Shown here: positions 2,892 to 52,927 of the stretch, one piece after another
How the letters are laid out: each line of letters begins with the position of its first letter
Numbering within the stretch: position 1 is the stretch's first letter
Notes under the pieces: model-generated
Database searches by the model: none
The model's input: only the letters and a program-made list of their open reading frames with translations
Told to the model about the DNA's origin: nothing
Source: Escherichia coli
GTDB taxonomy: Bacteria; Pseudomonadota; Gammaproteobacteria; Enterobacterales; Enterobacteriaceae
Direction: 5' to 3' (one strand)
Length of the DNA: 64,000 bases
NCBI RefSeq assembly: GCF_030013595.1
Contig: NZ_CP122768.1
Position numbers and translations under genes: made by a program

Positions 2892-3837
2892 ACGCCCACT
2901 GGTTATAAACACACAGCTTGCGATGAAGATTGGCTTAAATGAAGCCATTGTGTTGCAGCAGTTGCATTACTGGTTGAGAGATACCAATTCCGGCATGGAA
3001 TGTGATGGTGTTCGCTGGATTTACAACACAACGGAACAATGGCTGGAACAGTTCCCATTCTGGCCAGAGTCAACGTTAAAGCGCGCGTTTGCAAGTCTGA
3101 AAACGCTGGGGCTTTTGCGTTGTGAAAAGCTCAATAAATCAAAGCGCGATATGACCAATTTCTACACGATCAACTATGGGAGCGAGCTTTTAGATGGTGG
3201 CAAATTGAACGAATCCATCGGTTCAAAATGCGCCGCTCCATCAGGTCAAAATGACACGATGGAAGAGGTCAAAATGAAACGCTCCATTGGTTCAAAACGA
3301 CCCAATGTCATCGGGTCAAAATGGCCTGATGATCTTACAGAGAATACAACAGAGATTACTACAGAGAATAAAAACACTTTTCGTCCGGAAGCTTCGCAAC
3401 CGGACCCGCAGACCGCTGAACAGGATTTTTTAACCCGGAACCCCGACGCGGTTGTGTTTAGTGCGAAAAAACGCCAGTGGGGTAGCAGGGAGGATTTGGC
3501 GTGTGCGCAGTGGATTTGGGGGCGGATCGTGAACCTTTACGAACAGGCTGCCAGCGACGATGGAGAGATCATGCGACCAAAAGAGCCTAACTGGACAGCC
3601 TGGGCCAATGACGTGCGCACAATGCGGATGCTGGATGGCAGAAGCCACAGACAAATTTGCGAAATGTTTGGTCGGGTACAGCGAGATCCATTCTGGGTAA
3701 AAAACATCATGAGCCCGTCAAAACTCCGCGAAAAATGGGACGAACTGGTCATCCGCTTGGGACGTTCACCTGTACAGCGTTGTGTGAATCATATTTCTGA
3801 ACCGGATACAGAAATTCCGCCTGGTTTCAGGGGATAA
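2872..3837 (+). CDS. Replication initiation protein, lambda O-like
   Basis: Position after cro/cII-like genes; contains iteron-like DNA repeats internally (translated as repeated IGSK motifs), as in lambda O/ori; start at MSLLFAERP. Confidence 0.65.
   Translation: MSLLFAERPLVINTQLAMKIGLNEAIVLQQLHYWLRDTNSGMECDGVRWIYNTTEQWLEQFPFWPESTLKRAFASLKTLGLLRCEKLNKSKRDMTNFYTINYGSELLDGGKLNESIGSKCAAPSGQNDTMEEVKMKRSIGSKRPNVIGSKWPDDLTENTTEITTENKNTFRPEASQPDPQTAEQDFLTRNPDAVVFSAKKRQWGSREDLACAQWIWGRIVNLYEQAASDDGEIMRPKEPNWTAWANDVRTMRMLDGRSHRQICEMFGRVQRDPFWVKNIMSPSKLREKWDELVIRLGRSPVQRCVNHISEPDTEIPPGFRG
3219..3324 (+). repeat. Putative replication origin iterons (about five copies of GGTCAAAATG-like repeat)
   Basis: cGGTTCAAAATG 3219..3230, GGTCAAAATG 3244..3253 and 3267..3276, GGTTCAAAACG 3289..3299, GGGTCAAAATGG 3314..3324, inside the O-like gene. 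Confidence 0.6.
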
Positions 3838-51009: not shown

Positions 51010-51373
51010 ACACCACCAATGGCTGGCCTGGATTTATCGCCAGACCAGCCTCGTTATAGCAGTAATTGCAGCAGCTGGGTGAGGGCAAACTTCACCGCTA
51101 ATGCGAATGCCGTTTCGCAGTCGCCAGCAAAATTACTTTTTTTGTATACCCTTCCGTTATAATAATTTTCAAATTTATAAATCTGATTGTTCTGAAATAT
51201 GTTTAAGACTCTTTAATCTTCTTCTTACTTTAGTGAGTTAAATTCTCTTAATATTTGACAGCTAGTTGCCTGATTTTAAATGCCTTATAACAATTGGCAG
51301 TATTCTTATTTGTCAATTATAAAAATAGCAACCAGACTTAATAAGTCAAACCAAACGCAATTAAGGAGTCAGT

Positions 51374-51766
51374 ATGAAATTTCAGGCCATTGTATTAGCA
51401 AGTTTTCTTGTCATGCCTTATGCGTTGGCAGATGACCAGGGCGGATTAAAACAGGATGCAGCGCCACCGCCGCCTCATGCAATAGAAGATGGCTATCGCG
51501 GAACCGATGATGCAAAAAAAATGACCGTTGATTTCGCAAAAACCATGCATGATGGCGCTTCGGTTTCACTACGCGGTAATTTGATTTCTCACAAAGGAGA
51601 GGACCGTTACGTTTTTCGCGATAAGAGCGGTGAAATTAATGTTGTTATTCCTGCGGCAGTCTTTGATGGACGAGAAGTTCAGCCGGACCAGATGATCAAC
51701 ATTAGCGGTAGTCTGGATAAGAAAAGCGCTCCGGCCGTCGTTCGGGTCACTCATTTGCAGAAATAA
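51374..51766 (+). CDS. ydeI: OB-fold periplasmic protein YdeI (YgiW/BOF family)
   Basis: 130 aa with signal peptide [19 protein letters not shown]. Confidence 0.8.
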
Positions 51767-51803
51767 AAATAAATTAGCCTGATGGCCTGAACTACTGGGC
51801 CAT

Positions 51804-51835
51804 TAGGTTATTGGGTTATTGGGTTATTGGGTTAT
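51804..51835 (+). repeat. Short tandem repeat (GGGTTATT, about 3.5 copies)
   Basis: aggttattgggttattgggttattgggttat downstream of ydeI. Confidence 0.5.
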
Positions 51836-52036
51836 GCTATTTGTCATCCTTTTAATTGCGATAATGCAGGCTTAATTTACAGAATTAAACACTTTTTTAT
51901 CTGCTGATTTTGTTTCAAATCACAATGTTATCTCAGAGGTGATTCATAACTTCGGATTTCTATGAAAATATTGACGTAATTTTGCTTTTCTCTCGTTAGA
52001 ATAGCGCGCACAAGGAACTGTGAAAAAGGAGTGGCA

Positions 52037-52927
52037 ATGATCAAGAAGACAACGGAAATTGATGCCATCTTGTTAAATCTCAATAAGGCTATCGATGCCC
52101 ACTACCAGTGGCTGGTAAGTATGTTTCGCAGCGTAGTCGCGAGAGATGCCAGTAAGCCAGAAATAACGGATAACCATTCTTATGGACTGTGCCAGTTTGG
52201 TCGGTGGATTGATCATCTGGGACCACTCGATAACGATGAATTACCTTATGTTCGGCTAATGGATTCTGCCCATCAACATATGCATAACTGTGGTCGGGAA
52301 TTAATGCTGGCTATTGTTGAAAATCACTGGCAGGACGCGCATTTCGACGCCTTTCAGGAAGGGTTGCTTTCTTTTACTGCGGCATTAACCGATTACAAAA
52401 TTTATTTGCTGACGATCCGTAGCAATATGGATGTTTTGACGGGATTGCCGGGTCGTCGGGTTCTTGATGAATCCTTTGATCATCAGTTACGCAACGCTGA
52501 GCCTCTGAATCTTTATTTAATGTTGTTGGATATTGACCGATTTAAATTGGTTAATGATACCTACGGGCATTTAATCGGCGATGTAGTATTACGCACCCTG
52601 GCAACTTACTTAGCCAGTTGGACGCGCGATTACGAAACGGTTTATCGCTACGGTGGCGAAGAATTTATCATTATTGTCAAAGCGGCTAATGATGAAGAAG
52701 CATGTCGTGCAGGTATCAGAATTTGCCAGTTAGTCGATAACCATGCCATCACACATTCTGAAGGGCATATCAACATTACTGTGACAGCAGGTGTGAGTCG
52801 CGCATTTCCTGAAGAGCCTCTGGATGTGGTCATTGGAAGAGCGGACCGGGCAATGTATGAGGGTAAGCAAACCGGAAGAAATCGCTGTATGTTTATTGAC
52901 GAACAAAACGTGATTAACCGAGTTTAA
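52037..52927 (+). CDS. dgcZ: Zinc-sensing diguanylate cyclase DgcZ (YdeH)
   Basis: 296 aa MIKKTTEIDAILLNLNKAIDAHYQWL... with GGEEF motif (RYGGEEFIII). Confidence 0.85.
   Translation: MIKKTTEIDAILLNLNKAIDAHYQWLVSMFRSVVARDASKPEITDNHSYGLCQFGRWIDHLGPLDNDELPYVRLMDSAHQHMHNCGRELMLAIVENHWQDAHFDAFQEGLLSFTAALTDYKIYLLTIRSNMDVLTGLPGRRVLDESFDHQLRNAEPLNLYLMLLDIDRFKLVNDTYGHLIGDVVLRTLATYLASWTRDYETVYRYGGEEFIIIVKAANDEEACRAGIRICQLVDNHAITHSEGHINITVTAGVSRAFPEEPLDVVIGRADRAMYEGKQTGRNRCMFIDEQNVINRV

Follow-up and report, generated by a model that had tools for sequence, protein, structure and literature searches.

The ydeI–dgcZ intergenic region

The window, by which we mean the whole stretch of 64,000 nucleotides of Escherichia coli DNA that was analysed, has the local gene order dcp–(ydeJ remnant)–ydeI–dgcZ, which is that of the E. 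coli region, and holds a short tandem array between ydeI and dgcZ. The features to which the text refers are the following, in window coordinates.

51054-51134, minus strand: ydeJ remnant, 81 bp as annotated; about 474 bp of K-12 between dcp and ydeI are absent
51374-51766, plus strand: ydeI, encoding a 130-aa YdeI family OB-fold stress tolerance protein, the gene upstream of the array (open reading frame list and RefSeq annotation of identical loci)
51775-51810, plus strand: hairpin after the ydeI stop codon, with 5′ arm 51775-51788, loop 51789-51796 (8 nt) and 3′ arm 51797-51810 (RNA fold and per-allele folds)
51802-51835, plus strand: octanucleotide tandem array, ATTAGGTT followed by three copies of ATTGGGTT and a partial AT, 4.2 copies (Tandem Repeats Finder and direct reading)
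51829-51871, plus strand: stretch of the nested cysB1, cysB2 and cysB3 deletion primers, which start at 51829, 51836 and 51848 (primers of PMC13131220 mapped onto the window)
51997-52002 and about 52008, plus strand: −10 hexamer TAGAAT of the dgcZ promoter (our own reading of the sequence) and transcription start (from the end points and primers of PMC13131220)
52037-52927, plus strand: dgcZ (ydeH), encoding the diguanylate cyclase DgcZ, the gene downstream of the array, intact in the window (open reading frame list and annotation)

Tandem Repeats Finder reports a single array at 51802-51835, with a period of 8, 96% matches, a score of 61 and the consensus ATTGGGTT, from which the first unit, ATTAGGTT, departs by one mismatch. 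The unit GGGTTATT named in the original prediction belongs to the same array read in another register, and the approximately 3.5 copies claimed there were a fair estimate, the program counting 4.2 with one unit carrying the mismatch. The placement of the repeat outside coding sequence and after the stop codon of ydeI was likewise borne out: the stop codon occupies 51764-51766, dgcZ starts at 52037, and the non-coding array lies between the two, beginning 36 nt 3′ of the former. Neither the open reading frame list nor the small-frame listing contains a frame of at least 30 aa across the array; the sole frame that touches it, a TTG-started one of 26 aa (51827-51907), reaches no further than the last 9 bases of the array. 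A search of 51300-52200 on both strands against Rfam gave no covariance-model match up to an E-value of 1.

The tandem repeat is real and non-random. A two-unit probe allowing up to 2 mismatches finds 3 matches in the 64-kb window, every one of them within the array, where shuffled sequences lead one to expect 0.11, and in none of 100 shuffles were 3 matches reached. Six tandem arrays in total were found in the window at a score of at least 40, among which the octamer array has the shortest unit and the top match percentage. Two others lie near each other at 3214-3287 (period 23, 3.2 copies, 70% matches) and 3337-3370 (period 12, 2.8 copies).

The genes on either side have features of their own. 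DgcZ controls c-di-GMP, poly-GlcNAc-dependent adhesion and biofilm formation. Its mechanical open reading frame begins at a GTG at 52031 (298 aa) versus the ATG at 52037 (296 aa) that RefSeq annotates in identical loci, and the leader of about 29 nt that follows the mapped transcription start at 52008 contains two GGA motifs (CAAGGAAC and AAAGGAGU), which fits the reported control by CsrA. An IS91-family insertion interrupts dgcZ in HCP5S3_I2, which is one of the two strains in the collection most closely related to the window. On the other side of ydeI, the gene ydeJ (annotated as a 2-oxo-tetronate isomerase) is nearly wholly deleted in the window strain, with a junction near 51133; the annotations of pig strains, UTI89 and others show this remnant as well. 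The ydeI of UTI89 is annotated as a truncated pseudogene that has lost its N-terminus and adjoins the ydeJ remnant, the hairpin and a two-unit array being kept.

Copy number across complete E. coli genomes

The comparison of copy number across strains, which the original prediction had proposed as a check, was run on a sample of 5,426 complete E. coli genomes, with queries covering alleles of two or more units. A 201-bp query across the array finds a match in 5,378 of them, at a median of one place per genome. Among 40 rows sampled evenly down the ranking, the locus was 16 bp shorter than that of the window in 38, the other two being one exact match and one locus interrupted by an insertion sequence. 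The alleles could not be told apart with a 120-bp query, because megablast broke the alignment at the repeat into gap-free pieces; the allele counts given here come from short allele-specific queries, each first shown on local loci to match its intended allele only.

Exactly 23 of the 5,426 genomes perfectly match a 36-mer that is diagnostic of at least three units. The locus in these measures 193 bp in six genomes (3 units), 201 bp in nine (4 units), 209 bp in three (5 units) and 217 bp in five (6 units), as compared to 185 bp elsewhere, a series in exact 8-bp steps, and the flanks are perfect in all the expanded genomes but GMF054, where a single substitution falls inside the first repeat unit. 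Arrays that were read directly contain 3, 4, 5 and 6 units versus 2 in K-12 and others. The unexpanded state is dominated by a common two-unit allele, CCATTAGGGTATTGGGTTATGC (4,567 genomes), followed by an O157-type allele, CCATTTGGGTACTGGGTTATGC (321 genomes), and by ATTAGGTT ATTGGGTT (159 genomes), which we call the UTI89 type, its identity having been confirmed in that strain; some 300 further genomes with the locus were assigned to no allele class, and the rows sampled among them are all of two-unit length. About 99.6% of the genomes with the locus carry two imperfect units, with no length variation in the rows examined. Copy number is nonetheless not invariant, as complete E. coli genomes contain 2, 3, 4, 5 or 6 units.

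The expanded genomes come almost exclusively from one kind of host, 22 of the 23 being from pigs or wild boar and the remaining one from a human. The pig set comprises an ETEC series, O139:H1 strains and others, and extends over Belgium, the Netherlands, France, Denmark, the UK, Japan, Korea and Canada. Judging from the flanking sequences, shared local ancestry would explain this restriction, since all 21 best matches to the upstream flank of the window fall among the 23 expanded genomes; selection could explain it too.

One disruption of the array by a mobile element may be mentioned. In E. coli B379, an IS5-family element (ISKpn26-like) is situated inside the first repeat unit, after ...GGGCCATTAG, and thus directly 3′ of the ydeI hairpin and upstream of the dgcZ promoter. 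Four records in the 95–99% identity band are probably partial matches like this insertion.

Copy-number changes on near-identical flanks

Every added unit is an identical ATTGGGTT, and all length differences are multiples of 8. Compared over an 8.4-kb flank that begins at ydfJ and ends where dgcZ begins, nine of the expanded strains are 0–4 substitutions apart and fall into a single haplotype group, within which 3, 4, 5 and 6 units all occur. Two sets of strains in this group differ in copy number on flanks without a single substitution: W13-16 and ETEC1701 have 4 units where ETEC4068 has 3, and K_EC180 and ETEC4077 have 5 where ETEC1748 has 6. The window represents a second haplotype; its 8.7-kb upstream flank is 100.0% identical to those of the UK pig isolates HCP5S3_I2 and LCP30S3_I5, both of which contain 3 units as compared to the 4 of the window. 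Two more strains carry 3 or 4 perfect units, their first unit being ATTGGGTT, on yet other flanks. By our own count, at least five separate one-unit changes are needed among 24 sequences, with almost no substitutions over the same stretches. Changes in copy number between identical or near-identical flanks are the signature of replication slippage, and the proposal that this is a slipped-strand variable locus is supported by these whole-unit differences between closely related strains, with the qualification that the variation is confined to 23 of the 5,426 genomes, almost all of them from pigs.

The pace of change may be gauged from isolates that appear, by their strain names, sources and near-equal chromosome lengths, to belong to one clone. 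Such siblings agree on copy number (one set of five all have 6 units, one set of three all have 4, and three pairs share 5, 4 and 3, respectively), which argues against very high switching rates at the level of consensus assemblies, these being unable to reveal minority variants within a clonal population. The same agreement bears on whether the differences could be artefacts of assembly or sequencing. Uncorrected long-read assemblies can miscall short repeats; however, these arrays of 24–48 bp are spanned by single reads, the differences are exact multiples of 8 bp between perfect flanks, and independent assemblies of sibling isolates arrive at the same copy number, so that an artefactual origin is scarcely credible.

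Birth and nature of the array

We consider it likely that the array is a young octanucleotide microsatellite, that is, a small VNTR, which expands and contracts by slipped-strand mispairing and has most likely no function of its own. The alleles in the population suggest how it may have come into being, in an order of events that we infer. The starting state would be that of most E. coli, in which two adjacent imperfect octamers, ATTAGGGT and ATTGGGTT, differ at two positions. A G-to-T change would then have produced the UTI89-type pair ATTAGGTT ATTGGGTT with one difference left, and on this background ATTGGGTT would have been duplicated. Once at least three near-perfect units were present, slippage in replication could add and remove whole units, leading to the 3–6 copies now found in a few pig-associated lineages. 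The expanded alleles keep the UTI89-type first unit and the same right-hand flank (about 40 bases past the array, in sequences read directly), and are most simply derived from the UTI89-type allele by duplication of ATTGGGTT. The allele in the window is the 4-unit one, its added units merely standing between the ydeI hairpin on one side and the far-upstream stretch of dgcZ regulatory DNA on the other.

If this account holds, the locus provides a natural example of the birth of a microsatellite, in which imperfect octamers that are stable in thousands of genomes undergo one substitution and then become subject to expansion and contraction. On the practical side, the array is a possible fine-scale typing marker within the porcine ETEC and O139 lineages, as it separates strains that are identical over kilobases. 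As things are known now, its biological importance appears low: it is an ordinary small variable repeat, previously undescribed in the literature found by full-text search, with a small residual chance of modulating dgcZ.

The ydeI hairpin and the upstream edge of the dgcZ regulatory region

Whether the length of the array has consequences for its neighbors depends on the two elements between which it is inserted. On its left is the hairpin that directly follows ydeI, a stable and G+C-rich structure of 14 pairs, three of them G-U, with a centroid energy of −22.5 kcal/mol in a fold of 51760-51850. The 3′ arm closes with the first repeat unit, ATTAGGTT; the array thus starts inside the hairpin and runs on as its tail, and the folds of individual alleles predict that the G-to-T change lengthens the stem from 11 contiguous pairs to 14. 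Based on these folds, the structure is a probable ydeI 3′-end or terminator hairpin. On the right is the regulatory region of dgcZ, whose extent we take from reporter constructs made in EPEC (PMC13131220, 2026) by mapping the primers and the fusion end points of Table S1 onto the window. These fusions extend from −214 to +2 or +28, and from −75 to +2 or +28 (PMC13131220). Two reverse primers agree in placing +1 at about 52008, so that the array extends from about −206 to −173 relative to the start of dgcZ transcription. The same work proposes a CysB box upstream of dgcZ, a predicted site from RegulonDB whose exact limits are not in the text (PMC13131220). The cysB1 primer starts in the last repeat unit, and the predicted box therefore begins at or just after the array. 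The long fusion responded to copper and the −75 fusion did not, which makes the region from −214 to −75 necessary for copper induction of the dgcZ reporter in EPEC; cysteine and sulfate were without effect (PMC13131220). Our search of the literature found no source for a CysB site at dgcZ besides this paper.

Considering the hairpin alone, one might suppose that the array belongs to the terminator or 3′ UTR of ydeI, with a length that alters termination, read-through into dgcZ or the stability of the ydeI mRNA. The 14-pair hairpin directly after ydeI, with the first repeat unit in its 3′ arm, would suit such a role, as would the longer stem predicted for the very change that defines the expandable allele and the location of ydeI and dgcZ on the same strand. 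An intrinsic (Rho-independent) terminator likewise has a G+C-rich hairpin directly after a stop codon, and here the repeat would furnish part of the stem as well as the tail. That tail, however, is UUGGGUUA, which is U-poor and does not provide the U-run of a proper terminator; a terminator consensus scan requiring 5 T in 8 bases made no call at the hairpin, its T-run being weak; and no mapped 3′ end was found in supplements of two Term-seq papers for ydeI, a gene that was perhaps poorly expressed under those conditions. Furthermore, the first bases past the stem are identical in all alleles with at least three units, and additional units should therefore not change termination, so that we regard an effect of array length through the ydeI 3′ end as quite improbable. 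More improbable still is that the longer alleles form a G-quadruplex, of the form (GGG N5)x3 followed by a fourth GGG, whether in the coding-sense strand or in the 3′ UTR of ydeI, and thereby influence transcription or replication. On folding as single-stranded DNA, such a structure is predicted when an allele has 5 or 6 units, or four that are all perfect, the quadruplex energy parameters of the tool used being approximate. No quadruplex is predicted for the 4-unit allele of the window, whose array contains just three GGG runs, the fourth being 13 nt away, and which does not contain the canonical motif of (G3+ N1-7)x3 followed by G3+; nor is any allele predicted to form one as RNA.

The remaining alternative looks in the other direction, and would make the array a copy-number-dependent modulator of dgcZ transcription, in which added units change a regulator site, or the spacing or helical phase relative to the upstream DNA, and thereby tune c-di-GMP synthesis and adhesion in pig-adapted strains. 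What favors it is that the array, at about −206 to −173, borders the regulatory region on its upstream side, that the nested deletion primers named for cysB begin in the last unit (PMC13131220), and that nearly all expanded alleles come from pigs. Yet the added units are at the distal edge, beyond the predicted CysB box as seen from the promoter, and leave the distance from box to promoter unchanged. The broken dgcZ of the close relative HCP5S3_I2 gives no hint of strong selection on such tuning, and the association with pigs is also accounted for by shared local ancestry. We thus judge modulation of dgcZ by unit number unlikely, if somewhat less so than an effect on termination. A more ambitious version, in which the expansion in pig-adapted ETEC and edema-disease lineages is non-neutral because unit number tunes DgcZ-dependent c-di-GMP and surface adhesion via the upstream edge of the dgcZ regulatory region, strikes us as decidedly doubtful. 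If it were true, the array would constitute a heritable, slippage-driven “volume control” of a kind undescribed in E. coli, acting at the predicted CysB box and within the part that copper/Cpx induction requires. Since DgcZ controls c-di-GMP, adhesion and biofilm, an effect of unit number on dgcZ expression, if shown, would raise the importance of the locus. A neutral microsatellite remains our preferred reading. The array lies outside any open reading frame of at least 30 aa and outside the core promoter, which is not the location of a phase-variable switch, and phase-variable control of a gene finds no support; from the sequence context, the array appears to be tolerated where it is situated, and the best-supported function would be none in particular.

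Relation to known repeat systems

The closest counterparts of the array are the bacterial VNTR or microsatellite loci, such as those used in E. coli MLVA. Like them, it is an intergenic array of short units arranged head to tail, in numbers beyond chance, which differs by whole units between close strains in a way explained by slippage, changes faster than the flanking sequence accumulates substitutions, and shows instability only once several near-perfect units exist. It differs from them in its very small size, 2–6 units, and in its uniformity, about 99.6% of the species being monomorphic at the locus. No published MLVA panel includes the ydeI–dgcZ repeat, to our knowledge. A full-text literature search returned no mention of a tandem repeat at ydeI and no paper on the porcine ETEC strain series.

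Phase-variable contingency loci whose repeats precede a promoter offer a second point of comparison, the TAAA tract upstream of Neisseria meningitidis nadA being an example. The likeness consists in a short tandem repeat upstream of a promoter whose unit number could alter the spacing of regulators; any action of the array on dgcZ, should there be one, would be of this type. In contrast to these loci, the octamer array is located at the distal edge of the regulatory region, some 170–200 bp upstream; copy number is uniform among sibling isolates, and no effect on expression is known. We are not aware of promoter-upstream repeat switches of this sort in E. coli.

The Salmonella sRNAs between ydeI and ydeE (PMC2515195) lie beyond dgcZ in E. 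coli and are unrelated to the array. Species-representative genomes yielded no match to the exact hairpin 21-mer, which is present in K-12, or to a degenerate pattern of the ydeI end, a result that is uninformative as the E. coli representative itself was perhaps not covered. In a metagenome scan, a locus-specific 30-mer for the expanded alleles found no match. The bare three-unit array matched unrelated metagenome contigs, at least 120 in number, whose flanks differ, whose G+C contents span 18–55% and none of which resembles E. coli; these unrelated flanks and G+C contents rule out that the motif is a shared mobile element or family. The arrays in these contigs consist of 3–12 perfect ATTGGGTT units, are mostly internal to the contig, and often stand beside variant units such as ATTAGGTT or AATGGGTT.
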